A stretch of DNA of 64,000 nt from an uncultured Candidatus Actinomarina sp. (GCA_902634185.1 CACPJC010000003.1:64001-128000), one strand, 5' to 3'; numbered from the stretch's first letter, positions 3,419 to 46,992 are shown. Program-made: numbers and translations. Notes: generated by a model from the sequence alone, not told the origin.

Positions 3419-4213
3419 TTAAGCTGAACAAATATTGATGTAATCGGTTAAATACTCTTGTTCACTTGAATCTAATTCACCTGCTGTTCTGTAGTGATTG
3501 TATGCACCACCGTAATAACGCACAAGTGCATCAACTAAATATTCTTCCCCTCCAAAAAAGTCTCGTGCATCTTGACGATATAACGTTGTTGAATTTTTTG
3601 GACAGTTCCTAGTTAAATATGTAAATGCATGAAGTGATTCATGAAGTAAAACATCATAAGAAACTGCAGCTGAAAAAGCTCTATCCGATATCCAAATAGA
3701 AAGTTTCCATTCTGCATTTTTGGTTCCATCTGAGCTTGTTCCGCTTGGATCCCATACTCCATAAGGACACCTCCCAACAAGTGAAGCCCCATATTGATGA
3801 CAACCATTAATAACACTTATATTGTTTGTTTCGATTATTTGTAACAGTAATGGAGGTAATTGTTTGACTAGTTCACCCAAAGTAGTTTGATTTGTGCCTT
3901 CGAATCCTGCGTATTCTGCAAATGGACCTGTGTAAACCGTTGTGGTTGTGGTTGAAGTGGTTGTTGTTGAAGTTGTAGATGTTGTGGTTGAAGTGGTTGT
4001 TGTTGAAGGTGGAACAGTTGTTGTTGAAGGTGGAACAGTGGTTGTAGTTGAAGATGTAGTAGTCGTTGGCTCAAGAGTTGTTGTAGTAGTATCAATGACT
4101 TGAATTTCTTCTTGTTCAAGTACAATTGTCTCTTCTTCTTGATTAAAGTTTATTACAACTAAAGAAACAATTAATAACAGAAAAATAAATGAGTTTATAT
4201 ATCTGTTGTTCAT
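3419..4213 (-). CDS. Membrane-anchored protein with Thr-rich stalk and small zincin-like (HExxH) domain
   Basis: N-terminal hydrophobic segment, long Thr/Ser/Pro tract, VLLHESLHAF followed by EEYLVD. Confidence 0.7.
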   Translation of the reverse strand: MNNRYINSFIFLLLIVSLVVINFNQEEETIVLEQEEIQVIDTTTTTLEPTTTTSSTTTTVPPSTTTVPPSTTTTSTTTSTTSTTTTSTTTTTVYTGPFAEYAGFEGTNQTTLGELVKQLPPLLLQIIETNNISVINGCHQYGASLVGRCPYGVWDPSGTSSDGTKNAEWKLSIWISDRAFSAAVSYDVLLHESLHAFTYLTRNCPKNSTTLYRQDARDFFGGEEYLVDALVRYYGGAYNHYRTAGELDSSEQEYLTDYINICSA

Positions 4214-5655
4214 CTTCTGGCCTTTACTTTTATAAATAAACCTAGAATCAAAATTGTTAAAATGTATCCAATTAGGCCAATTGCAAAGGTTAAAGAAAAT
4301 GAACCCATACTTAATAAATCTTGTTGCATGTTGGCAAATTCACTATCTGGAGGAACAATAAGAATTCTTATAAACAACCACAAACCCAATATAAAACTTA
4401 AAAGTGGAAAGATTTTAAAAACACCTTGAGAGTCGGTAAGAGATTCAAATAACTCATTTCCACCACCCGGCAGTGACTTAAACAAAACTCCTTCTAAACA
4501 CATCAAATAGCTAAGGGCTGCAGCTGCCGTCAGTACCGTTGAGTCTTTAATAAGAGGTATAGATGTTAGATAGAAGAAACCAAACCCTGCAAGACTCAAA
4601 GCAATTGTTGAGTAAAATTTTGGTGAAAGTTTTGCTATATTTCTTCTTCCAGTGATGTACGCAGATGCAAAAAATCCAAATATAAATCCAATTGGCATTT
4701 CAAAATAGATGAAAGCAAGAGTAGAAATCCCCGCAAAAAATATTGCTTGAGGAGCCCATTTAATTCTTACTTTTTGCTTAAAAACTTTACTCTCAATTAA
4801 TCCCTCTGTCCCCTCGTAAAACAAAGTAACAGCAATTAACCCAACGAGTGCAGCAATAAATATTGCTAAATTTTCAAGATCTAAAGTTAGATCAGCTCCT
4901 TCCTCAACAAAGCCTATTAAAAATGCAGTTGAAAAAAGAACGAAAAGAACTTTAACTAAAGTAATAAGCTTCTTTGAGCCACGAATGTTTCTATCTTTGG
5001 CAAACCATCGAATATTATTCGTTGAAATAATTTTGTTAAACCATTCTTGTAAGAGCAACACTACATAAAACAAAAAGATGATTCCCGTTGAAACAATTAC
5101 AGCGATGCTGTTTTTTTCTTGATCTGTCAGATCAACATCCTCAAATAAGGGAATAGACGTAATCAACTCATTTGTTATTTCAATATTTAAAAAATCAGTT
5201 TCCTCGATGACGGGTGGTGGAAGAGTTGTTGTAGTTGTTGAAGTGGTAGTTGTTGTTGAAGTTGTTGTTGGTGGTGGAATTATTTTTAATAATTTTTGAT
5301 TTATGTATTCCATCTCAACTATTTTTTTACATTCCTCTGCAGGACAATCAGGCCCAGTAACATTCTCAAATTCAGTAATAAAAACGCGTATTGTGACCCT
5401 TACATAATCTGGATAGCAACATAGCTCAAGTTCGCCATCTGGGCTTTCAAGTTGAATTGTTTCAATATTGTTGTCGTGTGAAATTTGGAGGACGATGTCA
5501 TCATAGTCCTCAAAATTTATAGACCATTCAACTAATATCTTTTCATTTTCTAATCGTTTTATATCAAGCTTTATATTTTCGGTATCTAAAGTTGGAGTAA
5601 AAAATGAACCATTGAAAAAGAGGAGGAATAATAAAAATATTAGACTTTTTTTCAT
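4210..5655 (-). CDS. Polytopic membrane protein, resembles FGLLP-motif membrane proteins; secreted N-terminal domain plus Thr-rich linker
   Basis: Signal-like N terminus, Cys-containing small domain, PPPTTTSTTT linker, roughly 9-10 hydrophobic segments, and GFIFGF / LEGVLFKSLPGG motifs. Family call is from recall only. Confidence 0.55.
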   Translation of the reverse strand: MKKSLIFLLFLLFFNGSFFTPTLDTENIKLDIKRLENEKILVEWSINFEDYDDIVLQISHDNNIETIQLESPDGELELCCYPDYVRVTIRVFITEFENVTGPDCPAEECKKIVEMEYINQKLLKIIPPPTTTSTTTTTSTTTTTLPPPVIEETDFLNIEITNELITSIPLFEDVDLTDQEKNSIAVIVSTGIIFLFYVVLLLQEWFNKIISTNNIRWFAKDRNIRGSKKLITLVKVLFVLFSTAFLIGFVEEGADLTLDLENLAIFIAALVGLIAVTLFYEGTEGLIESKVFKQKVRIKWAPQAIFFAGISTLAFIYFEMPIGFIFGFFASAYITGRRNIAKLSPKFYSTIALSLAGFGFFYLTSIPLIKDSTVLTAAAALSYLMCLEGVLFKSLPGGGNELFESLTDSQGVFKIFPLLSFILGLWLFIRILIVPPDSEFANMQQDLLSMGSFSLTFAIGLIGYILTILILGLFIKVKARR

Positions 5656-5658
5656 TGA

Positions 5659-6288
5659 CTACTTTTGGATTTTAGTTGCCTTTTCAAAAATTTCATTTAC
5701 ATTTTCTACATACCATTCATCTGTATATTTAGACCAGACGGGATAACTTGGATCATAACGTAGCCATAGAAATGTGGATCCATTGAATAATTGAAAAATA
5801 TCATCAGCAAGTTCATCAGCAGAATCAGCATCATAATTTTTGCAGAGAGATTTGAGAACATCATAGGGTTCGCGCTGTATCCATTTTCCCGATGCTTGAA
5901 TATCTCTAACTTCAAACCAAGCAAATCTAATTGCATTACCAAGTTCAACAACTTTATTTGCGATTGTGTCCAAAAACATGGTTATAGCGGCACCAGGCTC
6001 TGGGGAGGTTTGTAAAAATGCATTCAACTCATCAGCAACATCTTTAAATCCTAATTGAAATAGTGATCCATAAACATCTAATTTATTCTCAGGAAAATGA
6101 TTGTAAGCAGTTGCAACAGACACTCCAGCATGCTTTGCAATTTGTGAGACAGTGACTTTTTCATGAGAAACGAGTGGATTATTAAATAGCTCGACTGCAC
6201 TATTTATAAGTTTTTTATGCGCCTCATCATATGTTTTTTGTGCACGTAATGATCTTCCATCCTGTTTTTTTAATGGTTCAATGCTCAT
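5659..6288 (-). CDS. TetR/AcrR family transcriptional regulator
   Basis: DGRSLRAQKT...LINSAVELF...VTVSQIAKHAGVSVATAYNHFPENK helix-turn-helix. Confidence 0.92.
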   Translation of the reverse strand: MSIEPLKKQDGRSLRAQKTYDEAHKKLINSAVELFNNPLVSHEKVTVSQIAKHAGVSVATAYNHFPENKLDVYGSLFQLGFKDVADELNAFLQTSPEPGAAITMFLDTIANKVVELGNAIRFAWFEVRDIQASGKWIQREPYDVLKSLCKNYDADSADELADDIFQLFNGSTFLWLRYDPSYPVWSKYTDEWYVENVNEIFEKATKIQK

Positions 6289-9200
6289 TTAATTACCACT
6301 TTCTATCCTAGTAAGAATCCCTGAAACAACGAGTCTTTGCCTAGCAGAGTACCTAGGGTGACAAGTTGTCAATGTCAGCCTGTCATCACCTCGATTAAAA
6401 AGAACATAATCTCCTGTGTTAGCATCAACCACTTCTATATCATCCACAATGTAATGGTATTTATTTGACCCATATGTTAAATAAATCTCATCTCCAATTT
6501 CGACCAAATCTAATCTACTGAAAGGGGCACCATATGTTGTCCTATGGCCTGCAATTCCAACATTTCCACCTGAACCCGGTAGTTTTGTCCCAAGATAGTG
6601 TCCTGGACCAAATTGCAAATTAAGTTCATCAGTACCTGAAACAACATATTGATTTACGTTTATACCTGGAATTTCAAGAAGACCGAATATTTCAGGTTGA
6701 AATTCATCAATCTTTGCACTTTGGTCAATGATGGTAAAATCTTGCAAAGTTTCAAAAACAGGAATGTCACTTTGGAATAAGCGAAGAGGATTTGAAAAAA
6801 TTGTAGGAGGATCTACGTCCTTTATTTCCTCACCTAGATAGATTTGTTCAAGATAAGCTTGAGCATTGTCTTGTTGAACATTTGATAAAAACATTTGTTG
6901 TGTTGCATAAATACCAAAACCCATACCTGTAATTATCGATAAAACAGCAAATCCAAGAGCAGGTCGTTTTAATTTTTTTCTATCAAAAAATTTTCTGTTA
7001 ATTTTTTTTGTGTCTTTTTTTCGAGAAAATACCTTTTTCTCCGCGATTTTTGCATCGAGCTCATTACCAGAATATATAATTTGAAAGTTATTTGAAATTA
7101 GACCCAAACGCTCTTCAAGAATTTCTTTTGTAAGTTCTGTATTTTCTTCCTCGCAAATAGATTTTATGTTTTCAATTGCGACTAGAGTATATTGAAGCTC
7201 ACTATCAAGTGCTTGTATCTCTGATTGATAAGTTGTAAAACTCTTTGCATATGGAGCAAATTTATTTATATCAATACTAATTTCTACTTTTTCTTGTATT
7301 AGTTTCTCAATTTTTGTTTTTAATTTGAAGGCATGCTTATAAATATCCTCTAGCGAAATTTCACTTTCCATTAGTTTTCTTTTTCGATAAGATGTAAAAA
7401 GTATTACACCACCAACTAAAAATACTGAACCGCTTATGACAATATAGTCTAAATTTATTCCTGTAGCTGCCAAGGCTATACTATCCTCTCGATAGATGTA
7501 GGTAACGTTGTAACTACCATCAGTGAAATATATGTCATCATCATCATCCCACTCTAGAAAGTCATTTCCAGTTTCATCAGTAAGAGGTGCTTCACATATA
7601 TCATCCTCTTCTAATATCATATCCTCACAAAAGTCATCCACTAATGGATCCGTTGGGTCTGGATCCGTTGGGTCAACTATACACTCAAGAAGTTCTTGTA
7701 AGTTTGTTGGATTACAAAATTCTTCTGGAGCAGGATCCGTTGGGTTTATAGGATCAGGATCTCTTGGATCAATTGGACCTGGATCTGGATCTGTAGGATC
7801 AGTTGTTGTAGTTATTGTAGGATCAGTTGTTGTAGTTATTGTAGGATCAGTTGTTGTAGTTGTTGGGCAATCAACTGTAAAGCTTGGACCCCAACGTTTC
7901 CAACCGCCTGAAAAAGAATTAGAAGTTGTAGAGGTTTTGTATCTCCATCTAACGTTTTGTCCGCTTGGAACATTTACAGATCCCCTTTCTGAGCTACCTG
8001 GTGGAACAGATCGATTAGAAACGAGTGTTGACCAGTTTTTTCCACCATCTAGGGAATACTCAGCTAAGAAATAAGCATTCGCATTTGAAGAGTCGGAGTT
8101 AGCCATATTGAAATGTATGAGTTTTGCACCTCCTGAACATTCCTCTCGTGTATTTGAAACAGAAGGGTTAATTATTGGAGGTCCTGGCAGTGTTGTTGTA
8201 GTTGTTGGACAATCAACTGTAAAGTCTGGACCCCAACGTTTCCAACCGCCTGAAAAAGAATTAGGAGTTGTCGAGGTTTTGTATCGCCATCTAACGTTTT
8301 GTCCGCTTGGAACATTTACAGAGGCCATTTCTGAGCTACCTGGTGCAACAGATTGATTAGAAACGAGTGTTGACCAGCTTTCCCCACCATCTAGGGAGTA
8401 CTGAGCTAAGAAATAAGCATTTGCATTTGAAGAGTCTGAGTTAGCCATATGGAAGTGTGTGAGTTTTGCACCTCCAGAACAAGCATTTCGAGTATTTGAA
8501 ACAGAAGGGTTAATTGTTGGAGGTCCTGGCAGTGTTGTTGTGGTCGTTGGAGACGGATCATCAATACAATCTAAAACTTTCTTGGTACCACCTTTTGTTT
8601 TTCTACCACTTAGTTCATCTTTAATAATAAAACGAAGTTTATATGTAGATCCATTTGGGACAGATAAAAGTGTAGTTAAGTCTCGTGTTTCTCCAGCAGC
8701 AATACTAAAAGTTTGATCAACAACTTTGGCTTTGTTTATTCTAATTCTCATTCTAATTGTTATGCCAACAGTTGACCTTGAGTTATCTACAATTAAACCA
8801 ATTCTCGCAGTTCCATCATCATTACATTCCATGAAGTTTGCAATCCTAAAATCTACTCTTGGAATTTCAACTGTTGTAGTAGTAATTTCCGGCAGTGTCG
8901 TAGTAGTTGTTGTAGTTGTAGTAGTTGTAGTTGTAGTTGTAGTAGTTGTAGTAGTTGTAGTTGTAGTAGTAGTGGTTGTTGTTACAACACAGCTAGCCGT
9001 ATATGAAAGAGTAGGATCTACGCCTGGGATATCTGTATCTTCAGTCACCCAAGTACTACTGTCATGAGCGCCTCCAGATTTTCTTGAACTATATCTCCAT
9101 TGAATACTTTCTCCATTAGCTAATGCGGGAGCAGAATACGTCTCCGATGAAGTAGCTGGTACCTCTTCATCATCTTTCAATTGTGTCCAGTTAGAGCCAC

Positions 9201-12200
9201 CATCAGTTGAGTATTCCACCCTATAAAAGACTGAGACAGTCGAATCAGAACCGCTACTAAGAGTTATTGAAGGTGTTTGTGTCTGAGAATCAGAACATGA
9301 TCCTAGTGATGTTGAAACACTAGCGCACGATATCGTAAGCTTCGATCCTATCTCTGTCCATGTTGACCCACCATCAGTTGAATACCTATGTTCACGTCCA
9401 GTACCATTTGCTATTGCAGTATTTACCGCAAATTCTTGTGTAGCGCCAGCATTTATTGACTTACCACTGTCTTCACCGGTAACACTGCCTCCAAAATATG
9501 CCCAATCCCCAACATTTCCAGTCACCGCATTGGTTGCTCTTTTTTGTACTAAAAATGTAATAGCGACATTACTTCCGCTGTTGTCGACAGTTATTTTAAT
9601 TTTACCCATTGTGCCGCCCTGGCTTGTGCCGTTATTTTTACAACCATTTGTTTCGTGAGAAACAGCCGGAGCAATAACGGGACAATCAATAGTTATTGTT
9701 GAAAGTGTTACCTCTGATTGGCTGAGTCCCTCTGATGAGTTAGCAACAGAGTATTTTATGATTACCGAGGTATCGTGACTTAGTGCTGGTACGGAAAGTG
9801 AGGAGGAGTCTGTCGCTCCAGCTCCAACGGTTGTAGCAGTTAATACTGTAAAGTTTGATCCCCCGTCAGTTGAGTAGCTGACGGTGAATGTTCCAGCAGC
9901 GGTTGAATTTGTATTTATAAGAGTAATTGGGATTGCTGCACTTCCACTCGAACAACTTGCAGCAGTTGCTGTGGCAGTAGCATTAAGTATGGGGCAATCT
10001 ATCTCAATACTGCTTAGGTTGGTTGTTGAAGCAGATGAAAAGTCGGTACTTGATGAGGTCTGATAACGAATATAGACGGTAGTGTCGTTTGTAAATGATG
10101 AACCTGAGAGACTAACAGTAGAGGTTGAGTCTGCTCCAACTAAAACATGAGATCCTCCGATACCGTCTGTCCAGGTTGAGTTATCTGTAGAGTATTGAAC
10201 TTTAAAATAATTACCAGAACCCTGTCCAGTATTGTCAAGGAGTACGTTTATAGGTGCTCCCCCACCTGAACATGTTCCATGCGTTGCAGAGACTGCTGGT
10301 GTTGTACAACTGACTGTGGCACTATTTAAACTAGCACCAGTGACATAATCTCCTGAGAATGATCCAGAAACCGTAGAGGTTTTATATCTCCACTGAATTG
10401 CAGTACCGTTATTGACAGTTTGCGTCACTGTATCTGATCCACCAACCGTAACCGATTTACTTGCTTCTTTTTCAACCCAGTTTGATCCACCGTCTATTGA
10501 GTACTCAATTAGGAAATACGCAGTAGCTTGTGATGAACCACTGTTTGAGATAGCTAATGTTGATGTCTTTGAAGCTCCACTACAACTAGCTGATAAACTC
10601 TGTGAACCAGAAGTTGTAATATTACATGAAACATCTGAACTTGCACTTCCAGTAGCAGTAGGAGTTCCTGTAAACGTTGCACTTGTTGTCGATTCTTCAT
10701 ATCTCCAGGTGATGTTTGAGCCAACCGGGACGCTATGCGTCAATGTTTCTGTGCTATCAACACCAACAGACTGATTAGCTTCCTTCACTTGCCAGGCACC
10801 GCTATCAATCTTGTACTCAACTTTTACATACGCTGTTGTTGTTGCAGAGGATGAGTTTGTAATTGCAAAACTTGATGTTGCGCTACCACTGGAACAAGTT
10901 CCAAGTGTAGCTGAAACACTTACGTCTATAACAGGACAGTCAACAGTTGCACTATTTAGATCACTACTTGTGACATAACTTCCTGAGTATGATCCTGAAG
11001 TTGTAGAGGTTTTATATCTCCATTGTATAGCTGAATTATGTGGTACAGACTGTGTAAGTGTTGCTGAGCCATTATTATTTACAGTTTGATTGGCTGCTTT
11101 CTCTGTCCAGTTAGATCCGCCATCTAAAGAGTACTCAACAAGGACATAAGCTACAGCATTTGCTGAATCAGAGTTATTAATAGTTAATGTAGAGGTTTTT
11201 GCTCCACTAGAACAACTTCCAAGGGACTGTGATGCACTGACATCTATTATTGGACAATCAACAGTTGCACTGTTCATATCACTACTTGTGACATAACTTC
11301 CTGAGAATGATCCTGAAGTTGTAGAAGACTTATATCTCCACTGAATAGCTGCATCGTGAGATACAGATTGTGTCAGTGTTTCAGATGCGTTTTTTGCAAC
11401 GGACTGGTTCGATGCTTTCTCTGTCCATGTTGACCCACCATCAACGGAGTATTCAACTAGGAAGTACGCTGTTGTGTTGGCGGAGTTAGAGTTTGATAAA
11501 GTTAAAGTTGAAGTTGCTGCTCCAGCTGAACAACTACCTAATGCCTGTGATGCACTTACATCTATTACTGGACAATCAACAGTACCACTTGCAACAGTTG
11601 TGGGTGTCAGTCCTGTAAAACTAGCTGATGTATCTGAAGATGTAACTCTCCAAGTTATTGCAGAACCATGAGATACATTTTCTGAAAATAAGGAACCCGT
11701 TCCAGTTAATATAGTGGCGCTTGCATTCTTTTCTGTATAAGTCGAACCACCATCCGTTGAGTATTCTACTTTTACGTAAGCAGTTGAACCTGACGTATTC
11801 GTTACTGTAAGTGTTGATGTAGCAGTTCCAGAACCAGAACAACTACCTAAATCTTGAGAGCTTGAAACTGTTACGGCTTGAGGACAATCAACAGTTGCAC
11901 TATTCATATCATCAGCTGTGATATAACTTAGTCCCGTCCAGTTCCCTGATGTATCAGAGCTTTTATATCTCCACTGGATAGCTGACCCATCAGGTACACT
12001 AACCGTCAAAGAGGTATTTGTTTGACCATCGGAAATTGATAAGTTATCTCCTTCCTGTGCATCTGTGTGAACAGTCCAGCTTGAACCTCCATCTAGTGAG
12101 TACTCAGCAGTAACATATGCTGTTGAACCAGAACTATTTTGTAGAGAAAGGGTAGAGGTATCAGAACCAGCTGAACAACCTCCTAGTGATTGTGAATCTG

Positions 12201-15200
12201 TCAGAGATATAGCTGTAGGACAGTCAACAGTACTACTTGTTACTTCTGTACCTGAACCAGAAAATGTATTACTTGTTGAAGAAGTTAGATAGGTCCATGT
12301 AATAGTAGATCCATCAGGAACTGTTTGGGCAGCCAGTGTTGTAGAAGCACCTGCTGCAACTGATTGATTTGTGACTACTGTATTCCAGTTTCCACTATCG
12401 ATTTTGTATCGAACATAAAAATATGCTGTTGTATTTGCTGATCCAGAGTTAGATAAAGTTAAAGTTGAATTTTGAGATCCTCCAGAACAGCTACCATCAA
12501 GTGATTGGGATACAGAGGGGTCAATATATGGGCAATCAATTGTATCGCTATTTACTATAGTGGCGTCACCGCTAAAATAACCACTTGTAGTTGATGTCTG
12601 ATAATACCATTTAGCATAAGAGCCATCCGCAATCGGTAATGTGACGGTCACGGAGCTACCTGCAGCCACTGCTATATTGAAGTTACTATCTCCCGACGAT
12701 ACGGTCAAATTAGATGATGATAAACCTCCTGATCCATCAAGTTGGTACCTTATCTTTACGTAGACAGTTGAATTTGCTGATGCGGAGTTTGATAAAGTGA
12801 CCGTTACTGTTGCTGAACCAGCGGAACAACTACCGACTGATTGAGCAAAAGAGAAATCTGTATATACACAATCAACAGTTGCACTATTCATATCACTAGC
12901 TGTCACATAACTTAGTCCCGTCCAGCTCCCTGACGCGTTAGAGCTTTTGTATCTCCATTGGATAGCTGATCCATGAGGTACGCTTACTGTTAAAGAGGTG
13001 TTCGTTTGACCATTGGTAATTGTTAAATTGTCTGCTTCCTGTGCGTCTGTGTGTACAGTCCAAGTAGACCCGCCATCGGTTGAGTACTCAGCTGTGACAT
13101 ACGCTGTTGATCCAGAAGTATTTTGAAGAGAAAGTGTAGATGTAGCAGAACCAGCTGAGCAACTACCAAGTGATTGTGAATCTGTCAGAGTTACTGCAGT
13201 AACACAGTCCACCGTTAATGCCGTACCATCTGGAGAGGTATAGCTTCCAGAAGTTGGATCCGATGATGCATCAGCTCGAGCTCGCCAAGATACCTGATAC
13301 CCATGTGGTTGGGCGGATAATGAACGTGTAATCGATGCACCTTGAGCTAATTCAATTCCAGTTAAATTGTCAGTCCAATCAGATATATCACTGCCGTCTA
13401 AAGTGAGTTTGTACTGAAGGTCGACAAAAATTGAACCGTTAGCAGTGTTGGTGATTGTAGCTGAAGGAACAGCTGAACCAGCTGAGCATGAACCCATAGC
13501 ATCTGTAATTGTAAATGTTGCCGTTGCGCAGTTAACTGTTGAGCTATTCATGTCACTAGCTGTGATGTAACTTAGTCCTGTCCAATCACCTGATGTATCA
13601 GAGCTCTTGTACCTCCATTGAATTGATGAGCCGTGAGAAACACTGACCGTCAGCGAGGTATTCGTCTGACCATTAGTAATAGTTAAATTATCTGCTTCCT
13701 GTGCGTCAGTGTGAACAGTCCAACTAGAACCACCATTGGTTGAGTACTCAGCAGTAACATACGCGGTTGAACCTGAACTATTTTGTAGTGATAGTGTAGA
13801 GGTAGCAGAGCCTTCAGAACAACTACCAAGTGATTGTGAGTCAGTGAGGCTAACTGCTGTTGGATCAGGAGAACAACCGGAGGCATTAATCGTTATTGAA
13901 GAAAGAGCAGTCGTATTTGAAGTCGGTTCACGCAAATCATAAGTAGTGTTTTCTGCATACCAACTAATTACCACTGTAGCACCATTAGATTGACCTGGAA
14001 CATCTAGGGAGGTATTGCTCGATGATGACGAGACAGAAGTGCCTGATGTCAGAGATTGTGAGCTTCCACCATTAACTGTATATGTAACAACAAAGTTAGT
14101 AGTTACGTTAGAACTTAAGTTATTTAAGGTAACATCTATTTTACGATTTGACCCATCACAACTTCCCTGAGTAGCTGTAACAGTGGGGGCGAAATCAACA
14201 TTGGGTGCACCTTCGTGGCATGCAGCACCATCATTTTTATTTGCTCCAGATTGTACTGTGCCTAGACTTGAACTCCAGCTCCAACTACTTCCGTTATATT
14301 CAGCTTTTCGAACATCTCCAGTTGAATTATGCACAAAATAAGCATGTTCTCCACCAAATCCAAACGCAGCACCAACATCTGAATTGCTCCATGAATATGG
14401 TGAAGTTGGTGAGCTTAATGAGTGGTCAGTTATTTCTATTGTGAAAGAACTCCCAGATACAATTAAGTATCCAAGCATTACTTGATCATTTACATTGTCA
14501 TAAGCCACAAAATCTGCTTCGTGGTTTACACCTCCACTAGAGAATGTTGGAAAGTTTGAACCATCTCTCAACCAGGTAAAGTCTTTTGCTTTAGCTAAAT
14601 TACCTGCAACAGAGTTTGTGTTTACTGTAAGAGAGGAAGTTACATCTGTATAATTTGAAGAGTTAGTGTAATCTGTACCATCTATACGAATTAAGAGTGG
14701 TGATGAGCCCTTTAAGAACCCATTACCTGAAAGTAAATAACCAGTTCCGTTGTATTCAAAATAGGATGCAGCATTATTATCAGCAGAACTAAAACTGGCT
14801 ATTAACGATGGGTTGTTATCAGCAATATTATCGTTGTTAGCATCAGTTGCATCCATATAGTAAAGTGTCCTATTTTTACTCGAATCTTTCCGAATCATCC
14901 AGAGATTTCCAAGATTATCCATCATCGAGTTGTTCCACTCATTTGAATTTGATCCTGGAAGGTTTTGATACTCGAATGTTGCTCCTGATGGTGTGGCAGG
15001 ACTAGAACTCACAAGATTTCCTGAGTTACTGTCCCACCCGTATACTTCAACTTTGTCATCTGAAGAGTTGTATTTTGTTTGATAACCTAATGGATTTCCA
15101 TCTGAGTTAAAACATGAGAGCTGTGAAGATGCAAAAGCAGGTTCAGGATCAACTGTCTCAATGGTCACATATGCAAGAGAGACAATCATTAAAAATGACA

Positions 15201-15300
15201 TAACTAAATTGAAAGTTTTCTTATTAAAGACGAACGAAAACAGCTTTTTACACAAAAGCACAACAAAGTCGAAGGCGTTTAATATTTTTATATTCCCCAC
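6289..15300 (-). CDS. Giant (3003 aa) repetitive surface protein with internal LAATG sorting signal, fused to a C-terminal class E-like sortase
   Basis: Signal peptide ending PAFA; N-terminal domain ending NDGAAC; about 19 Cys-paired ~100-115 aa repeats; 29-Thr tract; LAATG-TM-RKRK; second TM; sortase motifs GPGHY, IAGHRTTYGAPF and LTLTTCHPRYSARQRL. Confidence 0.88.
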   Translation of the reverse strand: MGNIKILNAFDFVVLLCKKLFSFVFNKKTFNLVMSFLMIVSLAYVTIETVDPEPAFASSQLSCFNSDGNPLGYQTKYNSSDDKVEVYGWDSNSGNLVSSSPATPSGATFEYQNLPGSNSNEWNNSMMDNLGNLWMIRKDSSKNRTLYYMDATDANNDNIADNNPSLIASFSSADNNAASYFEYNGTGYLLSGNGFLKGSSPLLIRIDGTDYTNSSNYTDVTSSLTVNTNSVAGNLAKAKDFTWLRDGSNFPTFSSGGVNHEADFVAYDNVNDQVMLGYLIVSGSSFTIEITDHSLSSPTSPYSWSNSDVGAAFGFGGEHAYFVHNSTGDVRKAEYNGSSWSWSSSLGTVQSGANKNDGAACHEGAPNVDFAPTVTATQGSCDGSNRKIDVTLNNLSSNVTTNFVVTYTVNGGSSQSLTSGTSVSSSSSNTSLDVPGQSNGATVVISWYAENTTYDLREPTSNTTALSSITINASGCSPDPTAVSLTDSQSLGSCSEGSATSTLSLQNSSGSTAYVTAEYSTNGGSSWTVHTDAQEADNLTITNGQTNTSLTVSVSHGSSIQWRYKSSDTSGDWTGLSYITASDMNSSTVNCATATFTITDAMGSCSAGSAVPSATITNTANGSIFVDLQYKLTLDGSDISDWTDNLTGIELAQGASITRSLSAQPHGYQVSWRARADASSDPTSGSYTSPDGTALTVDCVTAVTLTDSQSLGSCSAGSATSTLSLQNTSGSTAYVTAEYSTDGGSTWTVHTDAQEADNLTITNGQTNTSLTVSVPHGSAIQWRYKSSNASGSWTGLSYVTASDMNSATVDCVYTDFSFAQSVGSCSAGSATVTVTLSNSASANSTVYVKIRYQLDGSGGLSSSNLTVSSGDSNFNIAVAAGSSVTVTLPIADGSYAKWYYQTSTTSGYFSGDATIVNSDTIDCPYIDPSVSQSLDGSCSGGSQNSTLTLSNSGSANTTAYFYVRYKIDSGNWNTVVTNQSVAAGASTTLAAQTVPDGSTITWTYLTSSTSNTFSGSGTEVTSSTVDCPTAISLTDSQSLGGCSAGSDTSTLSLQNSSGSTAYVTAEYSLDGGSSWTVHTDAQEGDNLSISDGQTNTSLTVSVPDGSAIQWRYKSSDTSGNWTGLSYITADDMNSATVDCPQAVTVSSSQDLGSCSGSGTATSTLTVTNTSGSTAYVKVEYSTDGGSTYTEKNASATILTGTGSLFSENVSHGSAITWRVTSSDTSASFTGLTPTTVASGTVDCPVIDVSASQALGSCSAGAATSTLTLSNSNSANTTAYFLVEYSVDGGSTWTEKASNQSVAKNASETLTQSVSHDAAIQWRYKSSTTSGSFSGSYVTSSDMNSATVDCPIIDVSASQSLGSCSSGAKTSTLTINNSDSANAVAYVLVEYSLDGGSNWTEKAANQTVNNNGSATLTQSVPHNSAIQWRYKTSTTSGSYSGSYVTSSDLNSATVDCPVIDVSVSATLGTCSSGSATSSFAITNSSSATTTAYVKVEYKIDSGAWQVKEANQSVGVDSTETLTHSVPVGSNITWRYEESTTSATFTGTPTATGSASSDVSCNITTSGSQSLSASCSGASKTSTLAISNSGSSQATAYFLIEYSIDGGSNWVEKEASKSVTVGGSDTVTQTVNNGTAIQWRYKTSTVSGSFSGDYVTGASLNSATVSCTTPAVSATHGTCSGGGAPINVLLDNTGQGSGNYFKVQYSTDNSTWTDGIGGSHVLVGADSTSTVSLSGSSFTNDTTVYIRYQTSSSTDFSSASTTNLSSIEIDCPILNATATATAASCSSGSAAIPITLINTNSTAAGTFTVSYSTDGGSNFTVLTATTVGAGATDSSSLSVPALSHDTSVIIKYSVANSSEGLSQSEVTLSTITIDCPVIAPAVSHETNGCKNNGTSQGGTMGKIKITVDNSGSNVAITFLVQKRATNAVTGNVGDWAYFGGSVTGEDSGKSINAGATQEFAVNTAIANGTGREHRYSTDGGSTWTEIGSKLTISCASVSTSLGSCSDSQTQTPSITLSSGSDSTVSVFYRVEYSTDGGSNWTQLKDDEEVPATSSETYSAPALANGESIQWRYSSRKSGGAHDSSTWVTEDTDIPGVDPTLSYTASCVVTTTTTTTTTTTTTTTTTTTTTTTTTTTTTLPEITTTTVEIPRVDFRIANFMECNDDGTARIGLIVDNSRSTVGITIRMRIRINKAKVVDQTFSIAAGETRDLTTLLSVPNGSTYKLRFIIKDELSGRKTKGGTKKVLDCIDDPSPTTTTTLPGPPTINPSVSNTRNACSGGAKLTHFHMANSDSSNANAYFLAQYSLDGGESWSTLVSNQSVAPGSSEMASVNVPSGQNVRWRYKTSTTPNSFSGGWKRWGPDFTVDCPTTTTTLPGPPIINPSVSNTREECSGGAKLIHFNMANSDSSNANAYFLAEYSLDGGKNWSTLVSNRSVPPGSSERGSVNVPSGQNVRWRYKTSTTSNSFSGGWKRWGPSFTVDCPTTTTTDPTITTTTDPTITTTTDPTDPDPGPIDPRDPDPINPTDPAPEEFCNPTNLQELLECIVDPTDPDPTDPLVDDFCEDMILEEDDICEAPLTDETGNDFLEWDDDDDIYFTDGSYNVTYIYREDSIALAATGINLDYIVISGSVFLVGGVILFTSYRKRKLMESEISLEDIYKHAFKLKTKIEKLIQEKVEISIDINKFAPYAKSFTTYQSEIQALDSELQYTLVAIENIKSICEEENTELTKEILEERLGLISNNFQIIYSGNELDAKIAEKKVFSRKKDTKKINRKFFDRKKLKRPALGFAVLSIITGMGFGIYATQQMFLSNVQQDNAQAYLEQIYLGEEIKDVDPPTIFSNPLRLFQSDIPVFETLQDFTIIDQSAKIDEFQPEIFGLLEIPGINVNQYVVSGTDELNLQFGPGHYLGTKLPGSGGNVGIAGHRTTYGAPFSRLDLVEIGDEIYLTYGSNKYHYIVDDIEVVDANTGDYVLFNRGDDRLTLTTCHPRYSARQRLVVSGILTRIESGN
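6292..6690 (-). other. Sortase catalytic domain (His-Cys-Arg triad intact) within the giant ORF
   Basis: LEIPGIN...VVSG...GPGHYLGT...GNVGIAGHRTTYGAPF...TLTTCHP...RQRLVV. Confidence 0.93.
7375..7473 (-). other. Cell-wall sorting signal LAATG + hydrophobic helix + RKRK, internal to the giant ORF
   Basis: LAATG at 7459-7473 (residues 2610-2614), then INLDYIVISGSVFLVGGVILFTSY, then RKRK. Confidence 0.82.
7793..7862. repeat. 24-bp tandem repeat (~3 copies) encoding ITTTTDPT
   Basis: gtaggatcagttgttgtagttatt repeated. Confidence 0.85.
7858..8541. repeat. Recent 342-bp tandem duplication (two near-identical 114-aa modules)
   Basis: caatcaactgtaaag at 7868 and 8210 (period 342 bp); both copies encode INPSVSNTR..CSGGAKL.HF...WKRWGP.FTVDC. 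Confidence 0.9.
8896..8982. repeat. ACN trinucleotide tract encoding 29 consecutive Thr
   Basis: 87 nt of agt/tgt/cgt/ggt triplets on the + strand. Confidence 0.92.
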
Positions 15301-17983: not shown

Positions 17984-20548
17984 TTATTCATCACCATCAG
18001 CGATTCCATCTGTGTCAGCATCTGAGCTTGCATTTGGGTCTAAAGGAAATGCATCTAAAGAGTCTAATACCCCATCACCATCATCATCTGTGTCTGATGA
18101 ATTATCGATACCGTCTCCATCTGTATCAACAGCAGTTAGTTTCCATCTTCTCATAAATTCATCTTCAAACATTACTATTCCTACTTCAGGGTTCACCCAA
18201 AAATTTAGTATCTGTAAAGACCGGTGAAATGAACTTGATGCACCAATACTAACTTGTGAATGAGTAATTTTGTATGCATCGTATGCACCGTGAGGTGTAA
18301 CAACTAACTCTTGATTTACATAATTTGTAAAATTCCAAGTATCGTAATAAGTAGTGCCAAAAGTGGATGTATTTTCATATCTTGAAGAACAATCTGATTC
18401 ATTATATTCACCTGTCTTCATGTAATGGTCAATGAATAGACAAGGATTTTGAAATTCTCTTTCAATAGAGCCGTCACTTGGTGTTGAACCGGCAAATATC
18501 TTTTCCCAACCAACAGTCTTTATAAAGTAATTACCATTGTTTATATAAAATAATATTCCAAATTTATGGTTAACATCGCCTGTATTAAATGGATTCACAT
18601 AATTCATGTCACAATTTTGTGTATCACACCAGTAAAAAGTTTCGTATGTAGTTCCACCATCCTCAATATCTGAGCCTTTTTCGACATACATTGTTTTTGT
18701 TGCAGAAGTAGTTTCAGAAATTGATTCTGTAAAGCTATATGACGATGAACCACCATCAATTAATGGAAAATATGCTTTTGATTTTATTGAATAACTTCCG
18801 ATGTCAACGCCATAATTTGTAGATGGCCCAAATCTGTCATATTCATGTGCATATTCTTGCATTACTCTCGAAGCATCAGATTGATCATTTACTCCAGCAC
18901 TTTGTGTGCCTTGTGTTCCATCATTTTGATAGTGGAAAGGAATGCCAAGATCATTTACTTCTGGAAATCCAGCACATGTTAAATCTGGATTTGAATAAAT
19001 TCCACAAAAAGCCATTCCATACCCTACGAGAGTTGAGAAAGGTTGGTCGCCTGTCTGATTATAAGCATGTGCATAATCGGTAATTCCATCTCCTGTTGAT
19101 CCAGGATTTGAACTTTGCTCTCTTGAATGTGCTATCCCCAAAGCATGTCCTAACTCATGTGGAAAGAGCTTGTTATTATATCTGTAATCCAAGCTTGTAA
19201 CTTTGAAAACATTTCTCCTGTCTTTTGTTGTATCTCTATATAAATATGAAGAACTTCCCTCTCCAGGAAGGAGTGCACCTACAATATCAGCACCTTTTTT
19301 AACTTTAGTTTTGTGGACTTCTTGATCATATTGTAAAAAGTTTAAAATATTGCTACTTACGTCTGAGTAAGTCACATTCCAAGAATGGATATCCAAAACA
19401 TTCATTTCCAAGTTAGTAATCTGACTATTCGCAAAAATCTCATTTTGATTTGTCTCTAACTGACCCTGAGCAAAAGAAAGCAATTCACTGGTAGTATCGT
19501 AATCGCTTGGTGCAGATCCAATTGTGTCATTGTGGTAAACAAGTAAAAGATCTATGGAAAATTTTTCTGATATATCTGTCACGTTAACTGTAAAATTTTT
19601 GCAAGATATTCCCAAACTGTCAGTCACATTTGCAGTTGCTGAATAACTTGTCTTTTGCTCATAGTCAGCATTTGTATTTAAAGTTATTACTCCGTTTGAA
19701 TCAACCGACATAAGTCTTGAATCACTTCCAGTAATTGAGTAAGACAATGTGCCTGATCCCGTTGCTGAAATGGTATCAATAGATTTTTGATTTTCATTTA
19801 TTGTTATTGGAGTAGTTAAATTAGTAATTGTTGGACCATTGCTACAGCTATCCTCAGAAGAATTTCCTGATCCAGTTCCACCAGTTCCACCAGTTCCAGG
19901 TGTTATTCCTGGGATGGGTTTTTCTATAAAATCAAAACCACTATTTTTTAATTGTTTATGTTCATCGCAGTCTCTATATGTAGTCCATTCACCTGCTGCA
20001 TTCCATAAAGTTCCAACTTCTCCATGCCACATCTTTCCACCATCATCACAATCAATTTTCTCACTTACTGTTTCCGTGATAATTTCATCAACCTCTGTGA
20101 TAACTTCATCGACCTCTAAGAGATTTTGTTTTATTGGTCTATTTTCAAAAAAAGTACATTCTTTGTAAGCTAAATAGTCACCGCAATCTATAAATATAGC
20201 TTTGACCTCCATCTCACAATTGTTATAAGTTGTCATAGCTTTATGTGTTGAAGGTCCAATAATGCCATCAACTCTAATCCCAATAAATCTTTGAAAATTT
20301 TTGATTGCTAGCCTAAGACTTTTTGTCATATAAGCTTCAATTTTTCCAGTGAAAAAACCTTCTTCATTCAGAAAATCATATAAATTACTAACTTCAAGAA
20401 AATTTACGTTACCGTAATTATTTTCAACACATTCCTGAGTAGTTTCATTAAAGACTGATTCAGTTACTTCGATTTGGGTTGGAAACATTAGAGTTGTAAA
20501 AATAATCAAAAATACAAAAATAAAACAAGTAAAAATTCTCCAACCCAT
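17984..20548 (-). CDS. Secreted multidomain zinc metalloprotease: peptidoglycan-binding domain, cadherin-like domain, reprolysin/M12-like catalytic domain, Asp-rich TSP3-like tail
   Basis: AIKNFQ...VDGIIGPST (PG_binding_1); INENQ...DYEQKTSY (cadherin); HELGHALGIAH; DTDGDG/DAFPLDP repeats. Confidence 0.8.
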   Translation of the reverse strand: MGWRIFTCFIFVFLIIFTTLMFPTQIEVTESVFNETTQECVENNYGNVNFLEVSNLYDFLNEEGFFTGKIEAYMTKSLRLAIKNFQRFIGIRVDGIIGPSTHKAMTTYNNCEMEVKAIFIDCGDYLAYKECTFFENRPIKQNLLEVDEVITEVDEIITETVSEKIDCDDGGKMWHGEVGTLWNAAGEWTTYRDCDEHKQLKNSGFDFIEKPIPGITPGTGGTGGTGSGNSSEDSCSNGPTITNLTTPITINENQKSIDTISATGSGTLSYSITGSDSRLMSVDSNGVITLNTNADYEQKTSYSATANVTDSLGISCKNFTVNVTDISEKFSIDLLLVYHNDTIGSAPSDYDTTSELLSFAQGQLETNQNEIFANSQITNLEMNVLDIHSWNVTYSDVSSNILNFLQYDQEVHKTKVKKGADIVGALLPGEGSSSYLYRDTTKDRRNVFKVTSLDYRYNNKLFPHELGHALGIAHSREQSSNPGSTGDGITDYAHAYNQTGDQPFSTLVGYGMAFCGIYSNPDLTCAGFPEVNDLGIPFHYQNDGTQGTQSAGVNDQSDASRVMQEYAHEYDRFGPSTNYGVDIGSYSIKSKAYFPLIDGGSSSYSFTESISETTSATKTMYVEKGSDIEDGGTTYETFYWCDTQNCDMNYVNPFNTGDVNHKFGILFYINNGNYFIKTVGWEKIFAGSTPSDGSIEREFQNPCLFIDHYMKTGEYNESDCSSRYENTSTFGTTYYDTWNFTNYVNQELVVTPHGAYDAYKITHSQVSIGASSSFHRSLQILNFWVNPEVGIVMFEDEFMRRWKLTAVDTDGDGIDNSSDTDDDGDGVLDSLDAFPLDPNASSDADTDGIADGDE

Positions 20549-45747: not shown

Positions 45748-46992
45748 TTAGCTTGTGCCATGCTCCCAGGAGTCGAGATATTCAATTTGCTCTTTAGTAA
45801 GGATTTCTAATTCTCCACCCATGAGTCCTAATTTTGTAGCTGCAATTTTTAAATCAACTTCATTCGGAAGAGTATAAACTTTTGGCTCTAGGTCTTCATG
45901 ATTATCTTTTATCCATTCTGCAGCCAAGGCCTGGTTAGCAAATGACATATCCATCACTGAAGCAGGATGGCCAGTTGCAGCAGCTAAATTAACTAATCTT
46001 CCTTCAGCTAATACTAAAATTTCCTTACCATCGTACAAATAGCTTTCTACATGATCTCTAACTCTATGTACTTCAGCACTATCTTGTTTTAATGCTTCTA
46101 AATTGATTTCTACATCAAAATGTCCTGCATTAGCTAAAACTACTCCGTCTTTCATAACGTCAAAATGTTTCTTATCTAATGCATGCATGTTTCCTGTTAC
46201 AGATACAATTACATCAGCAATTTTTGCAGCATTAACACTACTTTTTACTTCATATCCATGCATTAAAGCTTCTAGAGCACGTACAGAGTTAGGCTCAACG
46301 ATTGTTACTTTAGCACCCATTCCATATGCTCGTTCTGCTACTCCTTTTCCACAATCTCCAAAACCAATCACAACAACATCTAAACCAGCAATCAAGAGAT
46401 CTGTTGCTCTTACAACACCATCCATAGCACTTTGACCTGTTCCAAATCGATTATCAAATAAATGCTTCGTGTCAGAGTCATTTACAGCAACGACAGGAAA
46501 GCGAAGTTTATTATTTTTTTCCATTGACTTCAGTCTTATTACTCCGGTAGTTGTTTCTTCCATTGAACCCATAACTGGTAAGTCAGATCTATCAGTTAAA
46601 AGTAAAGTAACTAAATCAGCTCCATCATCCATCGTTATGTCAGGTTTTGTGTCTAAAACAGAATTAAGATGCTTAAAGAATTCATCATTTGATACTCCAT
46701 GTACTGCATGTACTTCAACATCATTTTCAGCAAGATAGGCAGCGACTGAATCTTTAGTTGATAGTGGGTTCGACGCACACAATGCAACGTTTGCCCCAGC
46801 AGCTTTTAAAGTAAGCATTAAATTAGCTGTTTCTTTTGTTACGTGCATACATGCACCTATATTCAAACCATTTAATGGCTTATTACTTGAGAACTCTGTT
46901 TTAATTTCTTCAAGAACTTTCATTTGTCTAGCAGCCCAATCAACTTCTTGCTGGCCTACTGCTGATAGATTTTTGTCTTTTATAGTAGACAT
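45748..46992 (-). CDS. ahcY: Adenosylhomocysteinase
   Basis: SNPLST, DDGAD, EETTTGV.RL, KHLFDNRFGTGQS, NAGHFDVEI, EGRLVNL...GHP..VMDMSF. Confidence 0.98.
   Translation of the reverse strand: MSTIKDKNLSAVGQQEVDWAARQMKVLEEIKTEFSSNKPLNGLNIGACMHVTKETANLMLTLKAAGANVALCASNPLSTKDSVAAYLAENDVEVHAVHGVSNDEFFKHLNSVLDTKPDITMDDGADLVTLLLTDRSDLPVMGSMEETTTGVIRLKSMEKNNKLRFPVVAVNDSDTKHLFDNRFGTGQSAMDGVVRATDLLIAGLDVVVIGFGDCGKGVAERAYGMGAKVTIVEPNSVRALEALMHGYEVKSSVNAAKIADVIVSVTGNMHALDKKHFDVMKDGVVLANAGHFDVEINLEALKQDSAEVHRVRDHVESYLYDGKEILVLAEGRLVNLAAATGHPASVMDMSFANQALAAEWIKDNHEDLEPKVYTLPNEVDLKIAATKLGLMGGELEILTKEQIEYLDSWEHGTS

Follow-up and report, generated by a model that had tools for sequence, protein, structure and literature searches.

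A giant secreted repeat protein and a sortase are encoded by one uninterrupted reading frame in an uncultured Candidatus Actinomarina sp., one of the most abundant and smallest free-living bacteria of the ocean. We consider it likely that this arrangement is an old and genuine fusion of a sortase with its substrate, that the fused protein is processed by itself at an LAATG motif, and that the TAATG motif and the short A-runs found at the joint have no function of their own. All positions given below refer to the window, that is, the whole stretch of 64,000 nucleotides that was analysed (GCA_902634185.1 CACPJC010000003.1:64001-128000), and the giant gene lies on its minus strand.

Architecture of the giant reading frame

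The minus strand at 7390..7366 reads TAT CGA AAA AGA AAA CTA ATG GAA, exactly as an earlier sequence-only reading of this DNA had it, with an A5-G-A4 run at 7384..7375 and a TAATG at 7373..7369. This joint lies within a single ORF of 3003 codons (6289..15300, minus strand), which extends from a predicted start codon to the stop at 6289-6291 and encodes a secreted repeat protein, a sorting signal, a cytoplasmic domain and a sortase; the open frame containing the ORF measures 3011 aa. Two further observations of the sequence-only reading hold: the +1 frame (...EKEN*) stops at a TAA that overlaps the in-frame ATG at 7371, and a TAATG coupling of two genes is indeed present at 46992 (GGAGGATAATG). 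At the joint, by comparison, the TAA stands in the +1 frame and not in the upstream coding sequence's own frame, as it would in a TAATG-coupled pair. The tryptic peptide spanning the joint begins LMESEISLEDIYK.

The chain starts with a hydrophobic segment (aa 29-51; 15148..15216), which is probably a signal peptide. The extracellular part follows (7474..15147) and comprises about 20 Cys-bounded repeats with Asp-box-like YS.DGG..W motifs, joined by poly-Thr and PTDPD linkers; its Pfam matches, to BNR, Reelin_subrepeat-B and CHB_HEX_C, are weak. Translation and conservation then locate the pentapeptide LAATG (aa 2610-2614; 7459..7473), a predicted sortase cleavage site between T and G, in front of a first membrane helix, TM1 (aa 2615-2638; 7387..7458), which was found by hydropathy, corresponds to helix 33-60 in an AF2 model of the last 419 aa, and would act as the stop-transfer helix of the sorting signal. 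A basic tail, RKRK (7375..7386; CGA AAA AGA AAA), includes the A5-G-A4 run. The order expected of a sorting signal, from LAATG through 24 hydrophobic residues to RKRK, is thus present, but the signal is not C-terminal, since another 361 residues follow it in frame. They form a conserved cytoplasmic alpha/beta domain (aa 2644-2779; 6964..7371; alignment, AF2, Foldseek), a second membrane helix, TM2 (aa 2781-2800; 6901..6960; hydropathy, AF2), which is preceded by a basic cluster and brings the chain back outside, a linker seen in the AF2 model, and the sortase catalytic domain (aa 2875-2994; 6319..6678; Pfam, alignments, Foldseek).

A hydropathy scan of the whole protein detects three hydrophobic segments only, namely the N-terminal one, TM1 and TM2. 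Basic residues lie on the inner side of both helices, and by the positive-inside rule the substrate part and the sortase domain would be outside and the middle domain inside. The fusion would be topologically sound, because each half would have the topology expected of it as a separate protein; and since the two helices keep this topology, the enzyme would be placed outside, beside its own LAATG. The AF2 model of the last 419 aa shows a good fold, with a confidently predicted alpha/beta domain of about 135 residues. LAATG is not docked into the active site in this model, but with a pLDDT below 50 around the motif the prediction carries no information on docking, and a complex prediction of the sortase domain with the 36 residues ending right behind LAATG gave a score of 0.02, which has no bearing either way. 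Modelled alone, the cytoplasmic domain reached a pLDDT of 72.6; it had no PDB match at E <= 0.001 in Foldseek and no Pfam match. The domain is common to fused and unfused sortases of all three types of the family described below.

The enzyme itself is readily recognised, with 106 bits to PF04203 (peptidase C60; cut-off 26.6) and 85 bits to TIGR01076 (cut-off 39.35), and its barrel matches solved sortases A, D and E in Foldseek. H335, C396 and R405 (numbering of the last 419 aa), that is, the His in AGHRTT, the Cys in TLTTCHP and a downstream Arg, are invariant in alignments of 17 and 74 rows; their catalytic role we take from what is known of the family. The best class model is that of class E sortases (NF033747), at 109.6 bits and hence below its curated cut-off of 160. 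The LAXTG signal cognate to class E is represented by LAATG, whose cleavage is a prediction. A nearly invariant Tyr in both alignments, in GPGHY 17 residues before the catalytic His, aligns with GLGHY of Streptomyces avermitilis SrtE (5go5), a match by alignment position only and not to the numbering of SrtE1, in which a conserved Tyr229 lies in the beta3/beta4 loop (PMC5148588). Since the best class model stays below its cut-off and the GPGHY Tyr is not equated with Tyr229, we call the enzyme class-E-like. SrtE1 and SrtE2 of Streptomyces coelicolor and their chaplin substrates share the LAxTG motif found here, and SrtE1 likewise has a cytoplasmic N-terminal extension, then a membrane helix and then an extracellular catalytic domain (PMC5148588); solved sortases E also resemble the Actinomarina sortase domain in fold. 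Unlike these class E systems, the Actinomarina enzyme and its substrate are one polypeptide, the cytoplasmic part is a folded domain of about 135 residues with no solved relative, and the genome has one enzyme and one substrate.

The assembly (0.97 Mb, 32.6% GC, 83% complete) contains one sortase and one credible sorting signal, the LAATG signal of the giant ORF; a second match to the sorting-signal pattern lies inside a polytopic membrane protein. As the genome is incomplete, another sortase substrate could exist. The giant ORF is located between a threonine synthase gene and rho, and a gene for a TetR-family regulator (5659..6288, minus strand; Pfam TetR_N) begins directly behind its stop. 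Downstream of the TetR gene, a 481-aa ORF (4210-5655, minus strand) matches NF041501 ('FGLLP motif-containing membrane protein') weakly, at E 4e-13 and below cut-off. Two genes (thrC, hom) upstream of the giant ORF, an 854-aa ORF (17984-20548, minus strand) has matches to a peptidoglycan-binding domain and a reprolysin-like metallopeptidase. A 212-aa ORF follows the sortase in the sortase modules of two relatives (G074 and G075).

The joint across the order and in independent assemblies

We searched 62 genomes of the order and found sortase homologs in 44, at 47 loci, every one of which was inspected. The fused layout occurs at 33 of these loci, in 32 genomes, one locus belonging to a second genus (G077), and in all 33 a helix and a basic tail lead in frame into the sortase. 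An [L/M]AxTG motif (LAATG, LADTG, LAETG, LANTG or MADTG) is visible in 32, the 33rd being cut by a contig end, and is kept while its flanks diverge. Where contigs permit, the whole open frames of the fused relatives span 2,351-2,892 aa.

The nucleotide sequence of the joint is far less constant. Depending on the clade, it encodes RKRK-LL, RKKR-LI, RRRR-LL, RTKK-LL or KRLRDVK-QL, and the joint codons are CTT CTT, CTT ATA, CTT TTA, TTG ATA or others. Tail codons differ as well (CGA AAA AGA AAA, AGA AAA AAA AGA or AGG AGA AGA AGA), so that no slippery sequence is conserved; the clade with AGG AGA AGA AGA, then CTT, has no A-run at all. Met is found at the joint in 9 of the 33 loci and TAATG in 8, the remaining joints reading Leu or Ile. 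The Met is restricted to the window's clade (83-100% identity) and G074, and even a 98% identical relative (G056) has CTT ATG and no TAATG. A quick maximum-likelihood tree of the catalytic domain places the Met clade within a set of Leu-Leu clades, and Met at the joint is therefore derived. The fused frame itself spans lineages at 36-48% sortase identity and the second genus, and these are without TAATG. We infer that the fusion is older than the split of the two genera, and that the present TAATG is not a scar of it.

The TAATG motif is also no commoner than chance, as the window has 216 copies where 232 +/- 15 would be expected, and an NTA codon precedes 3 of the 22 in-frame ATG codons of the ORF. 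What is not chance about it is its position, right behind a sorting signal that is complete from LAATG through the 24-residue hydrophobic stretch to RKRK. At 7369..7373 it consists of the Leu codon CTA and an in-frame Met codon, and joint comparison and window count alike mark it as a lineage-specific chance motif. The A-runs, to judge by their codons, are the Lys and Arg codons of a stop-transfer tail in a low-GC genome. No Shine-Dalgarno motif precedes the ATG at 7371 in a check against 47 mechanical ORF starts, which is uninformative, since just 11 of those 47 have an SD-like motif.

At least half of the sampled words of the stretch were found in 20 public runs from 14 studies, and contigs were compared from four runs of four studies, comprising two DNA and two RNA libraries. 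In each of the four, one contig bridges 7366-7390 with no insertion or deletion. Two substitutions are the only differences there: 7374 G>A is synonymous (CTA to TTA), 7388 T>G replaces Tyr with Ser, and relatives carry both as well. Because assembled contigs drop rare variants, the absence of an indel holds at the contig level and not for minor alleles or slipped transcripts, and contigs from RNA libraries across the joint do not prove transcription. The PTDPD linker upstream of the sorting signal is polymorphic in length: one run has 15 nt inserted in frame behind 7644, and another skips 81 nt (7667-7749).

Two further sequences deserve mention. G074 holds all three module types (C, A and B) within about 27 kb (L040/L041, G074:C1:186000-221000); its fused-type giant gene is split into ORFs of 1287 and 664 aa by a frame change about 320 codons before LAATG, and is either a pseudogene or an assembly error. 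A fused-type fragment with LANTG, helix, RKKRLM and sortase (P0014), labelled 'sortase, partial [Nitrosopumilaceae archaeon]' at its source, probably comes from a mis-binned Actinomarina contig; in it, another clade too has Met following the tail.

Unfused pairs, proposed mechanism and rival explanations

The unfused loci number 14 of the 47, 12 of type B and 2 of type C, and in all of them the two genes are stop/start coupled. Type B sortases are 36-40% identical to the fused sortase, and the gene upstream encodes a related repeat protein that ends in FARTG, IPFTG, LPVTG or similar, a helix, a basic tail and a stop. At 9 of the 12 type B junctions stop and start overlap by one base (TAATG 4, TGATG 2, TAGTG 3), two others have stop and ATG directly adjacent, and one has a 6-nt gap. 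Type C substrates end in IAATG, a helix, PRRRR[DG] and a stop, and the sortase starts two codons later in the same frame. A cytoplasmic stretch of about 55 residues in type B sortases (e.g. L012:1492-3120:-) matches the C-terminal end of RecA (TIGR02012, E 1e-9, residues 85-137).

These pairs resemble the fused gene in their homologous sortases, in their repeat substrates with a sorting signal, and in the order of substrate and sortase; they differ from it in the stop between the genes and in an extra N-terminal helix and basic tail of the sortase. All 14 unfused sortases start upstream of this helix and tail, which align with the columns of xTG, TM1 and RKRK of the fused form, and the type C sortases start with M-T/I-G, aligned under the TG of the motif. 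From the ATG at 7371, 360 codons carrying a Pfam Sortase domain (PF04203, E 1.5e-30) can be read, which bears out the open frame of the stand-alone 360-aa sortase proposed in the sequence-only reading. Yet no homolog starts at the position of that Met among the 14 unfused paralogous sortases aligned, and a search of 1.84 billion representative proteins gave no full-length protein whose own start falls on query residue 1. The five class-level outgroup sortases carry a single helix, and no signal lies in frame upstream of them.

How might a fused chain reach the cell wall? The giant secreted repeat protein closes with a complete class-E-type cell-wall sorting signal made of LAATG, helix and RKRK, and the chain, not stopping there, continues through the cytoplasmic domain and the second membrane helix to the sortase domain, which would be extracellular. 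Once the chain has been exported by Sec, its own sortase domain or that of a neighbour probably cuts between Thr2613 and Gly2614 and transfers the giant ectodomain to a wall precursor. The remainder would be a two-helix membrane sortase of the same architecture as the free sortases of the unfused paralogous pairs. The cut at LAATG, the linkage to the wall and a reaction in cis are all predictions. TAATG arose in a single sub-lineage, through the replacement of the second Leu behind the tail by Met.

The history of the fused and unfused forms can be pictured in more than one way. In the tree from the quick search, the main fused clade, two other fused lineages and types B and C all branch from one basal polytomy, which sets no order between fused and unfused states, and TM1 shares 4-11 of 32 positions with the substrate helix or the extra sortase helix either way. 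A one-helix ancestor fits the outgroup sortases; fusion at the boundary of tail and N-terminus would then give the fused form, and a tandem duplication of the sorting signal together with a stop would give types B and C, the extra helix being a relic. Conceivably, the reverse route was taken, by a deletion between two sorting-signal-like repeats. A bolder reading, which we hold to be slightly less likely than not, is a self-anchoring polyprotein: having cut its own LAATG site and attached the giant fibre to the wall, the sortase domain would be set free as a two-helix sortase. Types B and C would then be its re-split descendants, with the former sorting-signal helix, and in type C even the M-T/I-G start, as a relic, and the enzyme-with-substrate mode, as similar fusions in a high-GC actinobacterial lineage suggest, would be recurrent and hitherto undescribed.

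The most serious competitor accepts the fusion and denies the cut: TM1 and TM2 together would anchor the giant protein through an uncleaved signal, and the sortase domain would serve another substrate or be structural. Cleavage is indeed a deduction, AF2 leaves LAATG undocked, and other substrates may be unassembled in a genome that is 83% complete. However, 32 of 33 fused loci preserve [L/M]AxTG amid diverging flanks, the catalytic His, Cys and Arg do not vary, and the search of the genome turned up no other sorting signal, so we regard an uncut signal as unlikely. The sequence-only reading had offered four accounts of the joint, a real fusion born from a 1-nt insertion, a slippage switch, an assembly indel, and chance in AT-rich DNA. 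A real fusion it is, to judge by the 33 of 33 loci in frame. Its birth from a 1-nt insertion that joined a TAATG-coupled pair in the window's lineage and left the motif as a scar fits the local sequence, but we find it barely conceivable: the fused frame occurs, always without the motif, in lineages at 36-48% sortase identity and in a second genus, and TAATG (8 of 33) and Met (9 of 33, derived on the tree) are confined to one young clade and one separate lineage nested among Leu-Leu lineages. The relatives refute this origin unless the 25 other loci were fused independently. 

A frameshift at A5-G-A4, by slippage or +1 shifting, might instead release a free substrate ending ...RKRN*, with re-initiation at ATG 7371 giving a free sortase alongside the fused product. 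The window's clade does have a +1 TAA overlapping an in-frame ATG, and the unfused pairs of the genus use just such stop/start overlaps. Against this, 25 of the 33 fused loci are without TAATG, the 98% identical relative reads CTT ATG, and no homologous sortase starts after the first helix; the RNA-library contigs without an indel argue weakly in the same direction. Runs typical of transcriptional slippage are longer, too, than A5 or A4. As the A-runs are not conserved, being absent from the clade with AGG AGA AGA AGA CTT, the slippage switch is not supported, and we judge it highly improbable. An assembly or sequencing indel, suggested by the short A-runs at the joint, has practically no likelihood left: 33 independently assembled fused loci are in frame, and four further public assemblies, equally free of an indel, refute it at the contig level. 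Chance in AT-rich DNA turns out to be the right reading of the TAATG motif, given its frequency in the window and the comparison of orthologous loci, in which the relatives are in frame and TAATG is not conserved. The idea of a former TAATG-coupled pair was apt for the genus, since type B and C pairs are stop/start coupled (with TAATG in 4 of 12 of type B), but it does not extend to the window's own TAATG as a fusion scar.

Similar layouts elsewhere and significance

Textbook sortases are trans-acting enzymes for separately encoded substrates. In a phylum sample of 401 genomes, 14 of them unpublished and carrying no claim here, 150 of 1142 sortase matches were examined; among these, frames are mostly 200-500 aa long, with a few up to about 850, and one very long frame besides that of the window was listed. 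It belongs to a genome of 70% GC (G303; L060, G303:C91:35800-44192) and is a single frame of 2379 aa with a signal peptide, DUF11/CARDB-type repeats, LAYTG, a helix, RRRRPR, a 27-residue loop, a second helix and a class-E-like sortase. Two proteins named just 'sortase' at NCBI (P0176 and P0177) are 48-50% identical to the G303 tail and have the same layout, with LAFTG or LAYTG. As all three share it in a high-GC lineage, the layout is recurrent in Actinomycetota. A long high-GC open frame (G470, 1158 aa) contains neither a sorting signal ahead of the sortase nor the Cys of TLxTC, and is not a fusion; P0023-P0026 have long cytoplasmic N-termini, which are not substrates.

We found no literature on a sortase of Actinomarinales or Actinomarina or on an Actinomarina giant protein, and the main text of the Actinomarinales genome paper mentions neither giant, LPXTG, surface protein nor transpeptidase. 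Among the open-access main texts covered, engineered uses were the only sortase-substrate fusions described, and no natural one was found. In BISOP, for example, sortase and recognition motif are placed in one chain and the enzyme cuts its own fusion; such constructs are man-made, soluble and intended for tag removal, unlike natural membrane polyproteins (PMC2901362). Type Va autotransporters of diderm bacteria likewise combine a passenger and a surface-display module in one polypeptide, but their chemistry and envelope are unrelated to those of Actinomarina, and the likeness is one of analogy only (PMC13721041).

Our findings imply that annotators should neither 'correct' the frame at the A-runs nor split the gene at the internal ATG. 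The fused, stop/start-coupled and re-split versions within one genus would constitute a natural series for studying gene fusion and fission. A conserved natural polyprotein of enzyme and substrate would ensure a fixed 1:1 supply of the two and may permit the reaction to occur in cis.
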